A DNA stretch of 64,000 bases from Hyphomonadaceae bacterium. GTDB lineage: Bacteria; Pseudomonadota; Alphaproteobacteria; Caulobacterales; Aquidulcibacteraceae. The stretch is taken from NCBI GenBank assembly GCA_016791385.1, contig JAEUMR010000032.1, forward strand, positions 1,153-65,152, in the 5' to 3' direction. Both the position numbers and the translations under genes were made by a program. This document shows positions 40,420 to 50,720 of this stretch, piece after piece. The notes under the pieces were generated by a model. The model ran no database searches. It was given only the letters and a program-made list of their open reading frames with translations, and was not told where the DNA came from. Position 1 is the first letter of the stretch, and the number at the start of each line of letters is the position of its first letter.

Positions 40420-40824
40420 TCACGACGCCTCCTCTTGCTCCGGCGTCCAAGCTTCGTAATCGGATGTTGAAGCCTGCCTAACGCCGCCGCGCGCGAGCGA
40501 TCCTTTGGGGCGATAGGCGTACTTCGTGCCGGTGAGGTTCGGCACGTAAGCCTGCTCCCACTTCTGCCGCTTCAGCGGCCGCACCGTCGGCGGCTCGTCG
40601 AGCGTGTGGTGCATCCAGCCGTGCCAATCCGGCGGCACTGCAGAAGCTTCGGAAAGACCGCTGTAAATCACATAGCGGCGCTTGCGCCCTTCAAGGCTCG
40701 CGCGCCGCTCTTCGAAATAGCGGTTGCCGAATTCATCCTGGCCCACAAACACCCCGCGGCGGCCGACATCGAACAGAGTTCCGAGCGTGGCTCCGTTCCA
40801 CCACGTGAAAATGCGCTTGAGCAT
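40420..40824 (-). CDS. NADH:ubiquinone oxidoreductase subunit NDUFA12 family
   Basis: FTWWNG, DEFGNRY, VPPDWHGWMH, PNLTGT, YEAWTP. Confidence 0.93.
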   Translation of the reverse strand: MLKRIFTWWNGATLGTLFDVGRRGVFVGQDEFGNRYFEERRASLEGRKRRYVIYSGLSEASAVPPDWHGWMHHTLDEPPTVRPLKRQKWEQAYVPNLTGTKYAYRPKGSLARGGVRQASTSDYEAWTPEQEEAS

Positions 40825-40930: not shown

Positions 40931-40979
40931 AAACAATATCTTGGGATAAGTCGCTGCGGGCACATACTATATATTGATC
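40931..40979. promoter_or_regulatory. Tandem NrdR boxes
   Basis: AAACAATATCTTGGGA (40931) and ATACTATATATTGATC (40964) match acaCwAtATaTwGtgt; 33 bp apart, upstream of an RNR homologue. Confidence 0.8.
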
Positions 40980-41027
40980 CGGCAAACCAGCCACGCGTAT
41001 GCTGCGGGCGCTCTCATGGAGACGCCC

Positions 41028-43838
41028 ATGTCCGGTGATTTGGATCACGACCTCGATGCCGCCCCCGCACCGGCCATTGCCCCTGCGGGCTGGTCCGAGC
41101 TGATGGCGCAAAGCGCCCTCGATGAGGGGGTGTTCGTCGACACCGCCATTGGTCCCGACATCGCCGAGGCGCTCCGGCGCGCCGCCGGCCGGATCGCCGC
41201 CTGGGCCAAAGACGCCGCGCTGGCCGAACCGCTGCTGAACCTGCTGGACAGCGGGCGGGCGGTGCTCGATCCCCCGTTCATGCGCGCGGCGCTCTCGCCC
41301 GGCGCTGAACTCACCCTCTCCGCCGCGCTGCTGCGCTGGCCGGCCGACCCCCGCGAAGAGCTCAAGGCGCTTTCGCGTGCGCAGGCGCTGCTTGCGTCCG
41401 GCGCAAGGCTCGGCATTGCCGGCGCGCCATCCGCCGCAGCGCTCGATGCGCTCGACGCAGCCGCGCGCATGGCCGATCCGAACGGCGGCGAAGGTCCGCT
41501 GGTGCTAGTGCGTCCCGGCGAAGAGAGCGCCGAAGCGTTGCTCGCAGACGCCAGCGCACGCACGCGCGCCGCGACAGCGCTCGCCGCCGGAGCGCGCGCG
41601 CTTGATACAGCGCTCGCTGATCTCGCCATCGAAGCAGTGCGCAGCGGCCTTAATGCCGACCATGGCGGCGTTCGCAGAAAAGCCGCTGCAGCCCGGCTTG
41701 CGGGCGCACCGGACGGCGACATTCTCGCCGCCCTTTCAGGCGCTGTCGCGCGCGGCGCCTACAGCGCCGCCTTGGACGCAGGCGCCGAGCCCGCGCGCCG
41801 GCGCATTCTGATTGCAGCGTCCGAGACCAGCGCCCATCACCTCACCGCCTTTGCCGGCGCGATGATCGATCCGAGCGGGGCCCTGGCCGGCGATGAGGAA
41901 ACCAGCGCGATCGGCGCGAGCCTTGCCCTGTCGCGCTTCCACGATGATGACGGACTCGATGCCGGCGCGCTCGAAGCAGCGGTGCGCGTGCTGGTGCGCG
42001 CCCTCGACGCCGGACACGGCGCGCATGGCGCGGCGGCGCGGCGGCCCGTGCTGCTCCGGCTTGAGGGCCTGAGCGCGCTGCTGCTGCGCGCGGGCCTCGC
42101 CTATGACAGCGACGAAGGGCGCGGCTACGCCGCCGGCATTGCCGCGCTGGTACATGCAGCGGCGATTTCCGAAAGTGCTGCCTTGGCCGAGAAACTTGGG
42201 CCTTATGCCGAGTGGTCGCGGCACCGCCGCACAGAAGAACTGGCGGTCAAAATCGCCCGCGAAGCAGTCCAGGCGCTGAGCGGAGAGGCCGCCTCGCGCG
42301 CTCAAGCAATTTATCGCGACCTGCCCAGCCCAAAGAGCGGCAGCCTGCGCGTCTCGCCGGTGCTTGCCTTCGCCAACGACCGCGCCAGCAGCCGCCGCTT
42401 GGGCCTTTCCGCGTCCGGCCTCGCGCCGCTCAGCAACGCAATCGTCTATGGCGAACGCGCCGATGGCGGCTTCGGGCGCCTGCTGAGCGATGATGCACAC
42501 GCCGCGCTCACGCACCTCGGCTACGGCGAGGAAGAGATTTCCGCGATTGCCGAGCACATTGAGGGGCGCCGCACGCTCGATGGCGCGCCGGGCGTCAATC
42601 TGATCAGCCTCGCCGCCAAAGGCCTCACTGACCCTGCGCTGCGGGCGATCGAGGAAGCCGCCCGCGACGCGCTCAGCCTTCGCGCAGCCGTGCACCCACT
42701 CGTGATCGGCGCTGAGTTCTGCGAGGACGTGCTGAAATTGCCGGCGGACGTCGCCGCCGGCAAACGCGGCGATCTGCTGATGACGCTTGGCTTCAGCGAA
42801 GCAGAGATCAATGCAGCCGAAGCCTATTGCATGGGCGCCAGCGACGTCTCGGCGGCGCCAACACTGCTGCAAGAGCATGCGGCCGTGTTCGCATCCGCCG
42901 CTGCGATCGCGCCAGAAGCGCGCATCGCCATGGCCGCACAACTTGCCCCGTTCGCGCGCAGCGCCGTCGAGCTCGCGCTGACGCTTGAAAACGCGAACCG
43001 CCGTACGGCGCTGCTCGATGCGGCGCGCGCGGCCAACGTTGCGCTGATCGACATCCGCGCCGAAGCGCCGCCGATCACGTTGACGCTGGCGCCGCTCGAC
43101 GAAGAGATCGAGGAGCCGCGCCCCACACCGAAGCCAGCGCAGATCGCGGCGGAAACGCCCGCACACGTGGAGCGCCGGCGCCTGCCGGAACGGCGCAAGG
43201 GCTACATCCAGAAGGCCACGGTGGGCGGCCACAAAGTCTATTTGCACACCGGCGAATATGACGACGGCGAACTCGGCGAGATTTTCATCGATCTGCACAA
43301 GGAAGGCGCCGCCTTCCGCTCACTGATGAACAATTTCGCCATCTCGATTTCGATCGGCCTGCAATATGGCGTACCGCTCGAAGAATACGTGGACGCCTTC
43401 CTGTTCACGCGCTTCGAACCAGCAGGCGAAGTGCGCGGCAACGACACCATCCGTCACGCCACCTCCATCCTCGACTACATCTTCCGCGAATTGGCGGTGT
43501 CCTATCTGGGCCGCACCGACCTGGCGCAGGTCGATCCCTTCGACGTGCGCGGCGACGGGCTGTCGAAGCGGGCGCAGGACGCTGAAAGCGCCGCGCGGCT
43601 GCTGATTTCACGCGGCTTCGCCCGCGGCGCAGCGCCCGACAATCTGGTCATGCTGCGTCCGCGCGCCGTGGTCGAAAACAGCCGCGACCGGCGCGACGCA
43701 AAAACAGCCCCGCCGCCGCGGCCCGCGGCGAGCAGCGGCTATCGCAGCGAACCGTGCGCCGCCTGCGGCCACTTCACGGTGGAGCAAGACGGCAAGTGCG
43801 CAGCTTGCGGCGCAACCGGCGAAGCCAGCGGCAGTTAA
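41028..43838 (+). CDS. nrdJ: Class II (B12) ribonucleotide reductase homologue, catalytically degenerate, with intact TSCPD domain and Zn ribbon
   Basis: C-terminus [23 protein letters not shown]...[15 protein letters not shown]...[15 protein letters not shown], CxxC..CxxC; core collinear with NrdJ but NPCxE and TIAPTGT absent. Confidence 0.82.
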
Positions 43839-43898: not shown

Positions 43899-44423
43899 AT
43901 GAAACGCGCTGCGCTGTTCGCTTGCCTGATTGCCCTCGCCACGCCTGCGTTCGCACAGGCGCCGTCAGCCACGGGCGGGCCGATGCTATCGCAGGCAGAA
44001 CGCGATGCGATCGCGGCGCGAGTGCGCGGCGGCGCCAGCTGCGCCCGTTGCGACCTGTTTCAGATCGATCTTTCCTATCAAGCGCTGGCGAACCGCACCT
44101 TCTCCGGCTCGCGCATCCGGCAAGCCGATTTCTCGCTCGCCACCGCCGACGGCGCCAACTTCAACGGCGCCAATCTGTCGCTGACCAATTTCTTCGGCGC
44201 ACGCCTCAGCCACGCCGATCTGCGCGACAGTAATCTTGAGGGCGCGACGCTTGTCGGCGCCTATCTGGGCGGGGCGCGCATGCAGGGCGCGGTGCTGACC
44301 GGCGCCAATCTCTCCGGGGCCGAACTGGCGGACACTGTGGGTCTCAGCCAAGCGCAGCTCAACAGCGCCTGCGGTGACGCCACCACGACGCTGCCGCCCG
44401 GCCTTACGCTGCCGCGCTGCTAA
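43899..44423 (+). CDS. Exported pentapeptide repeat protein
   Basis: Signal peptide, CARC, A(D/N)(L/F)xx repeats, ACGD..TLP. Confidence 0.92.
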   Translation: MKRAALFACLIALATPAFAQAPSATGGPMLSQAERDAIAARVRGGASCARCDLFQIDLSYQALANRTFSGSRIRQADFSLATADGANFNGANLSLTNFFGARLSHADLRDSNLEGATLVGAYLGGARMQGAVLTGANLSGAELADTVGLSQAQLNSACGDATTTLPPGLTLPRC

Positions 44424-44496: not shown

Positions 44497-45294
44497 ATGC
44501 GATCCGCCCTCAGCAAAGTCCCGGCCGTCACCCTGACATTCTGGGTAATCAAGATTCTCGCCACCACACTGGGCGAAACAGCCGGCGACACCGTCACCAT
44601 GACGTGGAACATGGGCTATCTCGCCGGCACGGCGATCTTCGTTGGCGCGCTCGCAGCGCTAGTGCTGCTGCAGATCAGAGCCGACAAGTTCCATCCCGCG
44701 CTGTACTGGGCGACAATCATCGCCTCCACCACCGCCGGCACCACTCTGGCCGACTACGCCACACGTTCGCTCGGCATCGGCTATGTCGGCGGCTCGACCT
44801 TGCTCTTGCTGCTGGTGCTGGCCTCGCTCGGCGTCTGGCACGCCTCGGAGCGGAGCATCAATGTCGACACCGTCAGCACGCCAAAGGTCGAAATCTATTA
44901 TTGGACCACTATCACCTTCTCTCAGACCCTCGGCACGGCGCTGGGAGATTGGATGGCCGCGAGCGCGGACGATCCCGCGGCCACGACGGGCTCGCTCGGC
45001 TTAGGTTACGCAGGCGGCGCACTCGTCTTCGGCGCGGCGCTCGCGGTGATTGCGGCGCTCTATTTTTGGACCAAAGCTTCGCGCGTTCTGTTGTTCTGGG
45101 CCGCCTTCATCCTCACGCGGCCACTGGGCGCCACCGTCGGCGACTTCCTCGACAAGCCGCTCGATCACGGCGGCCTCAATCTGAGCCGGCCGATTGCCTC
45201 GGCCGTGCTGATCATGCTGATCGTCGGGGCCATAATGTTCTTCCCGCAACGCGCAGGCGAACACCGTCCCTCGGCCCCAGCAGCGGCCAGCTGA
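44497..45294 (+). CDS. COG4705/DUF347 repeat membrane protein
   Basis: SKVPAVT..FW..KILATTLGET.GD; TRPLGATVGD. Confidence 0.9.
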   Translation: MRSALSKVPAVTLTFWVIKILATTLGETAGDTVTMTWNMGYLAGTAIFVGALAALVLLQIRADKFHPALYWATIIASTTAGTTLADYATRSLGIGYVGGSTLLLLLVLASLGVWHASERSINVDTVSTPKVEIYYWTTITFSQTLGTALGDWMAASADDPAATTGSLGLGYAGGALVFGAALAVIAALYFWTKASRVLLFWAAFILTRPLGATVGDFLDKPLDHGGLNLSRPIASAVLIMLIVGAIMFFPQRAGEHRPSAPAAAS

Positions 45295-47236: not shown

Positions 47237-48385
47237 ATGCGCCTGATTACGAAAACCGATGAGCTGGCGGGGTTCTGCGCGGAATTGTCCGCGCAGGCCT
47301 TCGTCGCGGTCGACACTGAATTCATGCGCGAAACGACCTATTGGCCGAAGCTGTGCCTGATCCAGGCGGCGGGGACGGAGGGCGAGGCGGCGATCGACCC
47401 CCTCGCCGATGACCTGGACCTGTCGCCGTTCCTGGACCTGATGGCGAACGCCTCGGTGCTGAAGGTCTTCCACGCCGCGCGCCAGGACCTGGAAATCTTC
47501 TTCAAGCTGGGCGGGGCCCTGCCCACGCCGGTGTTCGACACCCAGATCGCCGCCATGGCCTGCGGCTATGGCGACAGCGTCGCCTATGACGCTTTGGTGC
47601 AGCAGGTGCTGAAGCGCCGGCTCGACAAGTCTTCCCGTTTTACCGACTGGAGCCGGCGGCCGCTGTCGGAAAACCAGCTCGCCTACGCGCTCGCGGACGT
47701 CACCCACCTGCGCGATCTCTATCCGCGCATGCATGCCAGTCTCGACCGGCAGAACCGGCTGAGCTGGCTCGACGAAGAGCACGGCAACCTCGTCGATCCG
47801 GACATCTACGACACCACGCCTGAAAACGCCTGGCAGCGGCTGAAGCTGCGCAAGACCACGGCCGATTATGTGCTTGGTCTGCAAGTGGCGGCGGCGTGGC
47901 GGGAACGCCAAGCGCAGCTGCGCGACGTGCCGCGAGGCCGCGTGGTCAAAGACGAGGCGCTCTATGAGATTGCGGAGATCCGCCCGAAGAGCCCTGCCGA
48001 TTTCGAGCGCATGCGCGCGGTGCCGCGCGGCTTCGGCAATTCGCGCGCGGCGCAAGAGCTGATCCACGCGCTCGACCGCGCCTTCAGCGACCCCAACCGC
48101 AGCGCCTACAAACACCAGCGCCCGCCGCCGACGCCTTCGGGGCTGGGGCCAACGGTTGAACTCTTGAAAGTGCTGCTCCGCTACGAGGCGGAAGCACATG
48201 GCGTGGCCCCGCGCCTGATCGCCTCGGCCGCTGATGTCGAAGCGATCGCGGCCAGCGATGACGCCGATGTCCCCGCGCTGCGCGGCTGGCGGCGCGAAGT
48301 GTTCGGAGAGCGCGCGCTCGCGCTGAAGCACGGCAAGCTTGCGCTGAAGCTGAAAGACGGCCGCGTCGTCGTTGAAGCGCCCTAA
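47237..48385 (+). CDS. rnd: Ribonuclease D
   Basis: DTEFMRETTY, FHAARQD, DTQ, DWSRRPL, YALADV; HRDC domains. Confidence 0.96.
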   Translation: MRLITKTDELAGFCAELSAQAFVAVDTEFMRETTYWPKLCLIQAAGTEGEAAIDPLADDLDLSPFLDLMANASVLKVFHAARQDLEIFFKLGGALPTPVFDTQIAAMACGYGDSVAYDALVQQVLKRRLDKSSRFTDWSRRPLSENQLAYALADVTHLRDLYPRMHASLDRQNRLSWLDEEHGNLVDPDIYDTTPENAWQRLKLRKTTADYVLGLQVAAAWRERQAQLRDVPRGRVVKDEALYEIAEIRPKSPADFERMRAVPRGFGNSRAAQELIHALDRAFSDPNRSAYKHQRPPPTPSGLGPTVELLKVLLRYEAEAHGVAPRLIASAADVEAIAASDDADVPALRGWRREVFGERALALKHGKLALKLKDGRVVVEAP

Positions 48386-50415
48386 TCGGCCTTGAGCGCC
48401 GCCGCGCACGCAGCCTTGAAATCGTAGGCGACGAGCGTCGCGCAATCGGGCCAGTTGCGGGTTTCAAGCCAATATTGCGCGAGCCCTAGCCGTGCTGCGA
48501 GCGCAGGAAAACGCGGATGACGCCAGATTGGCTCGCCACCGTTGGAAACGAACAATTGCAGCGGCGACTGCGCCCGCGCCATGCCGAACGCCTCGTGATT
48601 GTCGGGCGTAAGCCCGCGCCCGGAATCGAGCGCTGCATTGATCACGTCGAACGCGCGTTCCGCGCAGCCGCGGCCCGCAGCCGCCAGTACGCTTGAGAGG
48701 GGGAGAGGCCCGTCCAGCGCGGCAAAGTGCGTGAGCATCCGCTCGCAGGCCTCTTTGCGCTGCGCCTCATCGAGCCGCAGCACGGCGATGTAGTTGCGCA
48801 GCACGCCAACGTCGCGTTCACTCACGCCGCGCTTGGGCGGCACGCCGGGCCGCGACAGCGCTTCAGCTTCGTCAAGCCGCCCCGCCGCACACAGCGAACT
48901 CCACATCACGTACCAGATGAACGCAGAATCCGGCCAACGCGCCCACGCAGCGCTGATAATTTCCAGCGCCGGCTCGATCTCGCCGCGCGCTGTCATCAGG
49001 CTGGCGCGCAATCCTTCCACGGCCGGCCCGAGCGGATCGAGACGGCTGGCGATTTCCAGCGCCGCCGCCGCATCGCGCAAACGCCCGACGCTGTAGAGCC
49101 AGGCCGAGCGGGCGACATGCAGTGACGCATCGTTCGGCGTGCGCTTCAGCGCCTCGTTGACGAGGCGAAGCTTCTCGGCGTGCTCGCCAAACGCCGGCTT
49201 GAGCAGCGACAACGCAGCGAACGCCTGCGCGCAGTCGGGATCGAGGTCGAGCGCGCGATTGGCGGCGGCGAGCGCCGCCTCGTGCTCGGGCGAACCGATC
49301 ATGTCGCGGTCGCGCGGCAGCAGGAACGCGCGCACGCTGGCAAGCGCGGCCCAACCCTGTGCGAAATCCGGCGCCAGGCCGACGCAGCGTTCAAGCAGGA
49401 TCGCGGCTTGGTCCTCCTCGGTGTCGTTGAGCATGAGCCATATCTGCCGCGCGCGCAGGTACAGCTCATAGGCAGCCGGGTCGATCGGCATCGCCGCGCG
49501 CTCGGACTGCACCAGCGACCGCCGCAGCGAAGCGGCCACCTTCGCCGCAATCTCGTCTTCCAGCGCGAACACGTTGCTGCGCTCGCCCTCGAACCGCTCG
49601 CTCCAAAGCGCCACGCCGGTGCGCGCGTCGATCAACTGGGCGCTGACACGCATGCGATCGCCGGCGCAGCGCACCGCGCCGTCGAGAATGTGCGTGGCGC
49701 CGAGCACGCCAGCCGCCTCCGCCTTGCGGTCGCCGCGAAATTGAAAAGCCGATATCCGCCCAATCACTTTGATCGAGCTCTGCCGCAACAGCGTCATGAT
49801 GATTTCGTCAGCGACGCCTTCGGAGAAATAGTCCATCTCCGCAAGGTCGCTTTCATTGTCGAACGGCAGCACCGCCAGCACCGGTTCGACCCGCTTGGCG
49901 CGCGGCTTGGCGGCGGCGACAGCTTCCAGCGTAAAGATGTCGATCGGCTCGCTCATCTTATCGAGATGGACAGCGCCCGCAGGATGCAGCCGCTGCGCCA
50001 GCTTGCCGCGTACCGCACGGCGCACATCCATCGACACCATCACCCCGCCCGGCGGCGCGAGTTGCTGCAAACGCGCCGCGACATTGACGCTGTGGCCGAG
50101 CAGATCGCCGGTGCCGGTGATCATCACGTCGCCGACATGCACCCCGACGCGCACATGCTTGCGCTCGACATTGCTCCACAAGCCCTCAGCAGCCGAAAGC
50201 GCGCCGGCCGCGGAGGCGAATTCGAGCATGAAGCCGTCGCCGGCGGTATTGAAGATGCGCCCGCCATGCGCCTGCACGACGACGTTGAGCAGATCGCGCA
50301 GACGCGTCACCAGCGCCAGCGCCTGCGCCTCGTCGGTTTCGGTCAGCGCCGAATAGCCGGCGACGTCGATCGACATGATCGCCGCGAGCTTCTTCGGGCC
50401 GAGTTCTTCCGTCAC
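48382..50415 (-). CDS. Class III nucleotide cyclase with TolB-like and TPR domains
   Basis: SIDVAGYS, TAGDG, GHSVNVAARLQ; LAVLPF..YFSEG..DEII; TPRs; GTG start inferred. Confidence 0.88.
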   Translation of the reverse strand: MTEELGPKKLAAIMSIDVAGYSALTETDEAQALALVTRLRDLLNVVVQAHGGRIFNTAGDGFMLEFASAAGALSAAEGLWSNVERKHVRVGVHVGDVMITGTGDLLGHSVNVAARLQQLAPPGGVMVSMDVRRAVRGKLAQRLHPAGAVHLDKMSEPIDIFTLEAVAAAKPRAKRVEPVLAVLPFDNESDLAEMDYFSEGVADEIIMTLLRQSSIKVIGRISAFQFRGDRKAEAAGVLGATHILDGAVRCAGDRMRVSAQLIDARTGVALWSERFEGERSNVFALEDEIAAKVAASLRRSLVQSERAAMPIDPAAYELYLRARQIWLMLNDTEEDQAAILLERCVGLAPDFAQGWAALASVRAFLLPRDRDMIGSPEHEAALAAANRALDLDPDCAQAFAALSLLKPAFGEHAEKLRLVNEALKRTPNDASLHVARSAWLYSVGRLRDAAAALEIASRLDPLGPAVEGLRASLMTARGEIEPALEIISAAWARWPDSAFIWYVMWSSLCAAGRLDEAEALSRPGVPPKRGVSERDVGVLRNYIAVLRLDEAQRKEACERMLTHFAALDGPLPLSSVLAAAGRGCAERAFDVINAALDSGRGLTPDNHEAFGMARAQSPLQLFVSNGGEPIWRHPRFPALAARLGLAQYWLETRNWPDCATLVAYDFKAACAAALKAD

Positions 50416-50465
50416 GCGAACCCCCGGGTGCGAGGGAGCGGCTCTAGCACATTCCTGAGCCGGGT

Positions 50466-50720
50466 TTAGCCCTGATCGCTCGGGGTGTCCTGGAAATAGG
50501 GCTCGACCTTGCCGTTGTACTTGATCGTCAGCTGCTTGCCGCGCCGGTCGAGCGTCTTGCCCACGGCAAGGCGGACCCAGCCTTCGCTGACGCAATATTC
50601 CTCAACGTTGGTCTTTTCGTTGCCGTTGAAGCGGATGCCGACGCCGCGCGCGAGCACGGCTTCGTTGTAGTGCGGGCTGTCAGGATCGACCGCGAGCCGG
50701 TCAGGCGGGGTGTCACTCAT
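50466..50720 (-). CDS. DUF3297 family protein
   Basis: PPDRL..P.SPHY...GIRFNG.EKTNVEEYCVSEGWVR. Confidence 0.9.
   Translation of the reverse strand: MSDTPPDRLAVDPDSPHYNEAVLARGVGIRFNGNEKTNVEEYCVSEGWVRLAVGKTLDRRGKQLTIKYNGKVEPYFQDTPSDQG

Follow-up and report, generated by a model that had tools for sequence, protein, structure and literature searches.

The window, a stretch of 64,000 nucleotides of contig JAEUMR010000032.1 from a Hyphomonadaceae bacterium of the order Caulobacterales, carries on its forward strand a gene collinear with nrdJ, the gene of the B12-dependent class II ribonucleotide reductase (RNR), in divergent orientation to a gene of the NDUFA12 family. The encoded protein combines a degenerate RNR barrel that lacks the catalytic motifs with a C-terminal tail composed of an IscU-like TSCPD core and a zinc ribbon. 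Judged from its sequence, it is not an active NrdJd, the tail-bearing class II enzyme, but a pseudoenzyme descended vertically from NrdJd, and it is probably kept for a non-catalytic binding role of the IscU-like tail.

The locus and the catalytic motifs

The frame is open from 40974 to 43838. The ATG at 41028, which has GGAGA six bases 5' and encodes a start methionine that is at least 90% conserved, gives a protein of 936 amino acids. Residue numbers used here are counted from the ATG at 41016 (940 amino acids) and equal the 936-residue numbering plus 4. Pfam gives a weak RNR barrel match at 301–512 and TSCPD at 732–827, and the score of 397 bits for the NCBIfam equivalog PRK07562 (NF005736) is below its cut-off of 1737. 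The reading frame, these family matches and the neighboring gene all agree with the original prediction of an uninterrupted 936-residue frame collinear with NrdJ and divergent from NDUFA12.

Eighty Caulobacterales loci were read, chosen across families from the 150 matches listed; 64 carry dead copies and 16 carry intact ones. The NDUFA12 gene divergently adjoins 62 of the 64 dead and 10 of the 16 intact loci, and the dead gene is therefore the old gene in place. Its single copy number, its synteny and its nesting among intact NrdJd sequences are those of an NrdJd descendant. Public contigs, possibly derived from the source sample, show 0 differences from window positions 41027–43208, and none of the 120 listed homologues (of 198 matches; 58–100% identical; the named ones belong to Vitreimonas, Terricaulis and Viadribacter) carries NPCxE, CNL.S, APTGT or PNSP, which rules out an assembly error. 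Public RNA runs cover just small shares of the gene and have no bearing on its expression.

The catalytic motifs were placed by profile–profile alignment of 120 members of the dead family with 60 intact NrdJd sequences; the global HH alignment is unreliable before residue 260. The finger loop reads DPSGA where intact enzymes have NPCSE, so that this alignment finds no intact radical cysteine there, and A298 aligns to the cysteine of ACNL. Both phosphate loops, APTGT and PNSP (the role of the latter as given in PMC8365446), are missing. The only cysteines in the protein are C569, C605, C914, C917, C928 and C931; the first two align to cysteines of the helical insertion in intact enzymes. The original prediction had described DPSGA and AIGASLAL at these positions, the absence of APTGT and an alanine-rich first 700 residues with only two cysteines, and all of this is confirmed, alanine making up 25% of that segment. 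Two candidates for a relocated radical cysteine were rejected because neither is kept across the order: C569, which is invariant in 120 of the 120 listed close homologues and replaced by leucine in Caulobacter crescentus, and a cysteine two residues before the ACNL site, found in 56 of 120 relatives.

In the zinc ribbon, intact enzymes have six cysteines, whereas the dead protein has four putative zinc ligands and lacks the cysteines of G-T-C and of the terminal G-C-S; the GCS motif is carried by 0 of the 120 listed homologues. All 64 dead copies keep the two CxxC pairs and have lost both redox motifs. All six cysteines are kept in 16 of 16 intact loci of the order and likewise in 68 of 68 others, a set of intact loci that includes a few duplicates and one Hellea. 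According to PMC5704485, the NrdJd of S. nassauensis needs all six for electron transfer, four being proposed as zinc ligands and two as a redox pair. The C-terminal domain and ribbon had been predicted to be near-canonical; this is wrong for the ribbon, which retains four cysteines but has lost both redox cysteines.

Table 1. Features of the dead nrdJ locus (window positions; residue numbers from the ATG at 41016)
Feature	Position	Strand	Basis or remark
NDUFA12-family gene, divergent	40420..40824	-	synteny marker; functional link not implied
NrdR-like box 1, AAACAATATCTTGGGA	40931..40946		same position (~-97) in relatives
NrdR-like box 2, ATACTATATATTGATC, 33 bp from box 1	40964..40979		nrdR gene in genome
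Catalytically dead NrdJd orthologue, 936 amino acids, whole frame with stop	41028..43838	+	PRK07562, 397 bits
Degenerate RNR alpha/beta barrel and helical insertions (20-686), predicted folded	41073..43073	+	AlphaFold, dN/dS
Finger loop DPSGA for NPCSE; radical Cys and Glu lost	41868..41882	+	profile-profile alignment
AIGASLAL for CNLASLNL; active-site resolving Cys lost	41907..41930	+	profile-profile alignment
ANDRA for APTGT; substrate phosphate loop lost	42372..42386	+	profile-profile alignment
Best-kept barrel part, helical insertion (~490-625) with C569 and C605	42483..42890	+	neither Cys kept in C. crescentus
Predicted disordered Pro/Glu linker (691-718)	43086..43169	+	pLDDT <50
IscU-like TSCPD core of C-terminal domain (719-836), strongly selected unit	43170..43523	+	Pfam PF12637; dN/dS; pLDDT ~95
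Long helix (765-786) at predicted two-fold dimer interface	43308..43373	+	two-copy model
Zinc ribbon, four Cys (C914, C917, C928, C931); both redox Cys of active enzymes gone	43755..43808	+	roles from PMC5704485

Selection and predicted structure of barrel and tail

The ratio of nonsynonymous to synonymous substitution rates (dN/dS) was estimated from pairwise Nei–Gojobori counts for 23 dead and seven intact pairs. In the tail core it is 0–0.081 among the dead pairs (median 0.033, at dS 0.25–1.4), 0.04–0.07 for this gene and 0.011–0.088 among the intact pairs, of which one is saturated. Averaged over columns, conservation of the core is 0.88 among 74 dead and 0.87 among 54 intact sequences, and 61 of 119 positions are at least 98% conserved among 132 sequences. 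These comparisons show that the tail of the dead copies is not relaxed at all and is selected as strongly as in active enzymes. The barrel gives dN/dS values of 0.06–0.69 in the dead pairs (median 0.26; below 1 in 23 of 23), 0.26–0.32 for this gene and 0.04–0.29 in the intact pairs; by the same counts it is under relaxed yet not neutral selection. In most lineages it is retained at 500–750 residues, and its sequences are too diverged between families for easy alignment. The program hmmalign dropped the N-terminal half of the dead copies, and its gap counts are no evidence of absence. An overlapping antisense gene was considered as a cause of the tail conservation and rejected: the 520-residue open reading frame at 41736–43298 varies in both position and length among 15 other loci, nothing constrains the synonymous sites of the tail, and in 9 of 16 loci stop codons interrupt the codon-antisense frame within the core.

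The AlphaFold model has residues 20–686 mostly at a predicted local distance difference test score (pLDDT) above 90, followed by a disordered linker and the tail. The barrel is predicted to be intact and to have the ten-stranded alpha/beta architecture of RNRs; it matches T. maritima NrdJ (1xjn) with Z 30.6 and a root-mean-square deviation (rmsd) of 3.6 over 470 aligned residues, and R. sphaeroides NrdJd (7b9q) with Z 30.1 and rmsd 5.6 over 621.

The tail is predicted to fold as a three-stranded sheet plus helices. Foldseek finds no match for it in the PDB at E ≤ 0.001, and a profile search for a tail domain with a solved structure gives none. A wider fold search reaches Z 5–5.7 at best and gives none at Z 8: IscU (1q48) matches with Z 5.1 and rmsd 7.8 over 108 residues, lipoate-ligase C-domains with Z 5.0 and rmsd 3.9–4.1, SufE likewise with Z ~5, and flavinylated domains with Z 4.7 and rmsd 3.0 over 76 residues, values which, being below 8, may mean a common arrangement only. 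The IscU likeness of class II tails has been noted in PMC9669993 (2022), where dimerisation is hypothesised; according to that analysis, no role of the domain in class II RNRs had been reported. In a two-copy model the tail scores 0.42 as a homodimer against 0.00 for the best of three controls, with pLDDT of at least 76 and at least 90% of contacts agreeing between runs; the pass mark is reached by 20 of 30 solved pairs and by 1 of 23 single chains. The tail is thus predicted to dimerise through helix 765–786 and its neighbors. The predicted interface holds 12 of the 61 near-invariant residues, while 29 invariant residues of polar or charged type are situated away from it, which points to a putative second conserved surface for a ligand or partner. 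This working surface would comprise the basic and aromatic invariants R726, R727, K728, Y730, Q732, K733, H739, K740, Y742, E755, D759, H761, K762, E763, R768 and N772.

Distribution, regulation and repeated decay

Of 201 Caulobacterales genomes, 189 yielded the tail, nearly always as a single copy. Among the loci read, the copies are dead in 20 of 20 from the family of this gene (f1), in 14 of 14 from f2, which groups with Hyphomonadaceae records, in 20 of 20 from f3 (Caulobacter, Brevundimonas, Phenylobacterium) and in 10 of 11 from f5 (the Maricaulis, Marinicauda and Glycocaulis side). The intact copies are the remaining one of f5 and all 15 of f6, which is probably Parvularculaceae. Thirteen further regions comprise seven intact f5 copies, five that lack the motifs (among them a stand-alone tail, a copy truncated at a contig end and another interrupted by an N gap) and a remnant in which the tail motif is missing. 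One dead copy (L057, G169) has a frame break in its barrel, one otherwise intact copy (L252, G155) has a tail frameshift, and L255 (G120) is a small remnant; each of these represents either real decay or an assembly error. Class-wide, 259 of 401 genomes yielded the tail, a tally that includes the unpublished G240, which enters into no other result; the 20 class-wide loci read hold 16 full-length intact genes, two short frames with NPCSE, one frameshifted gene and one dead gene. The two short frames (L198 in G443 and L199 in G404) start mid-barrel and are split genes or frameshifts, and one intact NrdJd (L195) lies on a record titled Methylocapsa plasmid.

The protein of C. crescentus NA1000 (ACL95431.1, CCNA_01966; 907 amino acids) is of the same kind. 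It has SPTDAE for SNPCSE and has lost both redox cysteines, and its gene is flanked, like the one in the window, by a 'NADH dehydrogenase' gene in divergent and aspS in convergent orientation. The CB15 record names it 'ribonucleotide reductase-related protein', whereas a figure legend in PMC6538847 has CCNA_01966 drawn as NrdJ in nucleotide reduction. The same paper gives ~1,020 (M2G) and ~1,210 (PYE) molecules per cell. In a table of PMC5869019, an internal antisense segment of CCNA_01966 is 11.3-fold enriched with the small RNA GsrN. With dN/dS below 1 in every dead pair, the frame kept over four families and translation in C. crescentus, the original view of a maintained pseudoenzyme rather than a decaying pseudogene stands; neither broken frames nor dN/dS near 1 are the rule in Caulobacterales.

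RNRs with intact motifs are present elsewhere in this genome (G000): two class Ia alpha genes with NLCSE, one beta gene and the gene of a second class II enzyme, which has NPCGE and six cysteines in its tail, alongside nrdR. The nrdA copies (C45:17-1918 and C57:336-2219) are 88.6% identical in DNA and lie near contig ends; they result from either a duplication or a mix-up in binning. The second class II enzyme (C33:4803-7046, 748 amino acids) has a PAGR triphosphate-type loop, occurs in 10 of 12 genomes of the genus and has no strict NrdR core near its start. In the order it was found in 37 of 201 genomes, NrdB in 200 of 201 and nrdR in 201 of 201; most Caulobacterales have class Ia only.

The two NrdR boxes predicted upstream of the dead gene are present, 33 bp apart. 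Tandem 16-bp palindromic boxes at a fixed distance from the start of the gene, with nrdR in the genome, would place it in the NrdR regulon. Sites were scored with a matrix trained, starting from the NrdR core pattern, on 30 sites of intact genes outside the order. A site scoring at least 10 lies upstream of 13 of 19 f1 and 17 of 20 f3 genes (1–2% in shuffled sequences; 1.6% for f1), and a tandem spacing of 30–34 bp is seen at 13 f1 and 12 f3 loci. Strict NrdR-type cores occur at 14 places in this genome (15 matches), two of them at the dead gene, one before nrdB and one before an nrdA copy. The boxes could conceivably control the divergent NDUFA12-family gene. In contrast to the dead f1 and f3 genes, which keep their boxes, the intact nrdJ genes of f6 (L098–L112) are mostly without detectable ones. 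NrdR boxes as such are described in PMC4409342.

Dead copies have also arisen outside the order. Of 17 loci read in Paracoccus, a genus with the gene detected in 65 of 81 genomes, 3 are dead, and in the alphaproteobacterial family f149 all three are. Their finger loops read SADGA, SAAGE or DASGA, and the terminal cysteine is lost in all six, two Paracoccus copies keeping a cysteine one residue off the first redox position. The tail is again the conserved part, with dN/dS of 0.009 versus 0.29 for the barrel in Paracoccus and 0.018–0.058 versus 0.23–0.30 in f149. A FastTree analysis of barrel-insertion and tail columns unites the Caulobacterales dead copies in one clade (support 1.0); in the tree built on the tail alone, an intact f5 copy falls within an unresolved fork, and a single Caulobacterales origin is thus not settled. 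In the tail-only IQ-TREE analysis of 50 rows, Paracoccus and f149 are set apart from Caulobacterales by supported branches, implying at least three independent origins of decay. The dead Paracoccus copies nest with intact relatives in that tree; they group together in the full-length tree, but not in the tail tree. Another RNR alpha subunit with a strong match is present in five of the six Paracoccus and f149 genomes, the sixth (G599; 440 contigs, 90% complete) having a fragment only. In two genomes with dead Paracoccus copies (G598, G628) a class II enzyme only was found, and no class I alpha, so that no single RNR type goes with all dead copies.

In one genome (G035; 100% complete; 333-kb contig) the gene, 151 bp from NDUFA12, encodes ~270 amino acids (L258:1196-2005), consisting of a short lysine-rich leader, the tail core and the ribbon. 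A second genome (G690, L271) has the same arrangement beside NDUFA12; the two are 82% identical, with a tail dN/dS of 0.032. Other members of the genus have proteins of 700–840 amino acids, and the barrel shrinks stepwise within it (841, 769, ~700, none). Three database proteins resemble these: P0353 (515-kb contig) and P0367 (near-identical to the G690 protein) share the lysine-rich leader, and P0365 has another leader. Stand-alone tails at the ancestral locus imply that the barrel is dispensable in at least one lineage, and, together with repeated decay in which the tail is kept, that the selected unit is the tail.

As to the remaining neighbors, a pentapeptide-repeat gene (window 43899–44423) follows dead and intact nrdJ alike in most loci of the order. 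Between it and aspS lies a gene for a DUF347 membrane protein (window 44497–45294); the corresponding place in C. crescentus is occupied by CCNA_01968, a hypothetical gene listed as essential, the match being one of position only. Further on (window 48382–50595) an adenylate/guanylate cyclase-like domain is fused to tetratricopeptide repeats.

Possible roles and known systems

The gene would survive for a second, non-catalytic job of the tail, as a dimer that binds a conserved ligand or partner, while class Ia NrdAB would have made the B12 chemistry redundant and the barrel would now be mostly a passenger under weak selection to stay folded. The original idea of a scaffold is weakened for the barrel, since two genomes deleted it outright; the sensor, also suggested originally, is still a candidate role. 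The ligand may be a purine deoxynucleoside triphosphate (dNTP). According to PMC5704485, the tail of S. nassauensis NrdJd drives tetramers and hexamers induced by dATP or dGTP; a third nucleotide site is suspected there, not shown, and the native electron donor was not found. The tail of the dead protein would use this suspected oligomer-forming site, making the protein a dNTP-responsive adaptor. By analogy this is the single best guess as to the ligand, put forward tentatively; that the tail binds a conserved protein partner unrelated to dNTPs has about the same modest likelihood. In a wider form, it is possible, if short of an even chance, that the IscU-like tail of alphaproteobacterial class II RNRs is an autonomous dimeric purine-dNTP sensor or adaptor, useful enough for at least three lineages to drop the enzyme and retain the tail, one of them as a stand-alone 270-residue gene. 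If so, the 'NrdJ' of C. crescentus would be a regulator that responds to dNTPs under the control of NrdR, and moonlighting would extend to every active NrdJd.

Several observations weigh against a conserved binding role of the tail, or against its link to dNTPs. Neither a ligand nor a partner of the tail was found. The case for dNTPs comes from a single, distant enzyme of an actinobacterium, for which direct binding assays were inconclusive (PMC5704485). A site scoring at least 10 precedes only 1 of 14 f2, 0 of 10 dead f5 and 1 of 15 intact f6 genes. With the boxes missing in two dead families and in f6, dNTP wiring is not general, and the NrdR wiring originally predicted applies to f1 and f3 but not to f2 or dead f5. 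The dimer score is exactly at the pass mark and expresses model confidence. No copy of the gene was found in 12 of the order's 201 genomes or in 16 of 81 Paracoccus genomes, and in C. crescentus, according to PMC3202797, CCNA_01966 is non-essential (238 insertions), nrdA and nrdB being essential. Pairwise dN/dS is rough, as high GC lowers the dS estimate and the pairs share history, and the barrel values of 0.06–0.16 in some dead pairs overlap those of intact enzymes; hence a function of the barrel in most lineages is possible.

Instead of binding, the tail might have a cryptic activity, handling metal, sulfur or flavin on its IscU/SufE-like fold and zinc ribbon. The weak fold matches to IscU, lipoate-ligase C-domains and flavinylated domains, the invariant H739, H761, E763 and D820 as possible ligands and the IscU-like cysteines kept in some class II tails (PMC9669993) are compatible with this. 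It is nevertheless unlikely: the fold matches all lie at Z below 8, residues 606–913 contain no cysteine, so that the tail core is without a cluster- or sulfur-accepting one, and Pfam and Atlas searches give TSCPD only and no enzyme family. Still less probable is a functional dead barrel, for instance one acting as a silent regulator through binding of NrdA, dNTPs or B12 and oligomerised by the tail. A fully folded barrel model, dN/dS below 1 in all dead pairs and a retained length of 500–750 residues speak for it; the missing PNSP and APTGT loops, the stepwise shortening to nothing in one genus and the divergence between families speak against it.

That the tail feeds electrons in trans to another RNR, in the manner of NrdJb, was part of the original prediction and has a precedent, since an active-site-dead NrdJd subunit can donate electrons in trans (PMC5704485) and P. 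aeruginosa has, in NrdJb, a subunit of its own for disulfide exchange (PMC4520616); this genome also has an intact second class II enzyme. The idea fails, and is very improbable, because the proposed redox pair, part of the six cysteines needed, is lost in 64 of 64 dead copies and because the second class II enzyme, which carries its own six-cysteine tail, is present in so few genomes; the RNR company moreover differs between the dead Paracoccus copies and most Caulobacterales. Least credible of all are the readings of the gene as a pseudogene in slow decay or as an active RNR whose radical cysteine has moved elsewhere, for although a frame break (G169), a remnant (G120) and the invariance of C569 among close homologues fit one or the other, the pseudogene is contradicted by the selection data (tail dN/dS 0.03 at substantial dS, the frame kept over four families, ~1,000 molecules per cell in C. 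crescentus), and C569 aligns to a helical-insertion cysteine of intact enzymes and is not kept in C. crescentus.

The loss of the catalytic residues takes a textbook-annotated B12-dependent RNR away from C. crescentus and from most members of its order. It also isolates a domain of open role, for which the dead copies and the stand-alone tails serve as natural deletion experiments: they show the domain to be of importance where no catalysis is left. The question can be addressed in C. crescentus, a tractable and harmless model in which the gene is non-essential and expressed. In the literature searched, including PMC2795772, PMC3019208 and bioRxiv 2022.04.23.489257 (subscription journals and bioRxiv supplements lying outside its scope), there was no dead bacterial case and no statement that the Caulobacter protein is inactive.

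Compared with known systems, the dead protein is closest to NrdJd itself (R. sphaeroides, 7b9p and 7b9q; S. nassauensis), with which it shares the locus beside NDUFA12, the barrel fold, the helical insertion, the four zinc cysteines, the NrdR boxes and an IscU-like tail core that is ~80–85% identical. Unlike NrdJd, it lacks NPCxE, the resolving cysteine, PNSP, APTGT and the redox pair, and it is ~290 residues shorter. The NrdJb subunit of the split class II RNR of P. aeruginosa, as described in PMC4520616, likewise joins an IscU-like domain to a zinc ribbon, an architecture identical to that of the G035 and G690 genes. NrdJb, however, carries out thiol–disulfide exchange for its cognate NrdJa, whereas here the redox cysteines are gone and no catalytic half lies at the locus. 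To the IscU and SufE domains discussed in PMC9669993 the tail has a weak likeness in its predicted three-stranded sheet with helices, and dimerisation, hypothesised there, is supported by a model here; the tail lacks cluster-binding cysteines and its fold score is only Z ~5. The cytomegalovirus protein UL45 (PMC5469499) resembles the dead protein in that an inactive RNR fold is kept for a non-catalytic role; UL45 is viral, derived from class I and engaged in host signalling, while the present protein is a chromosomal bacterial class II descendant in which the selected part is the tail and not the barrel.

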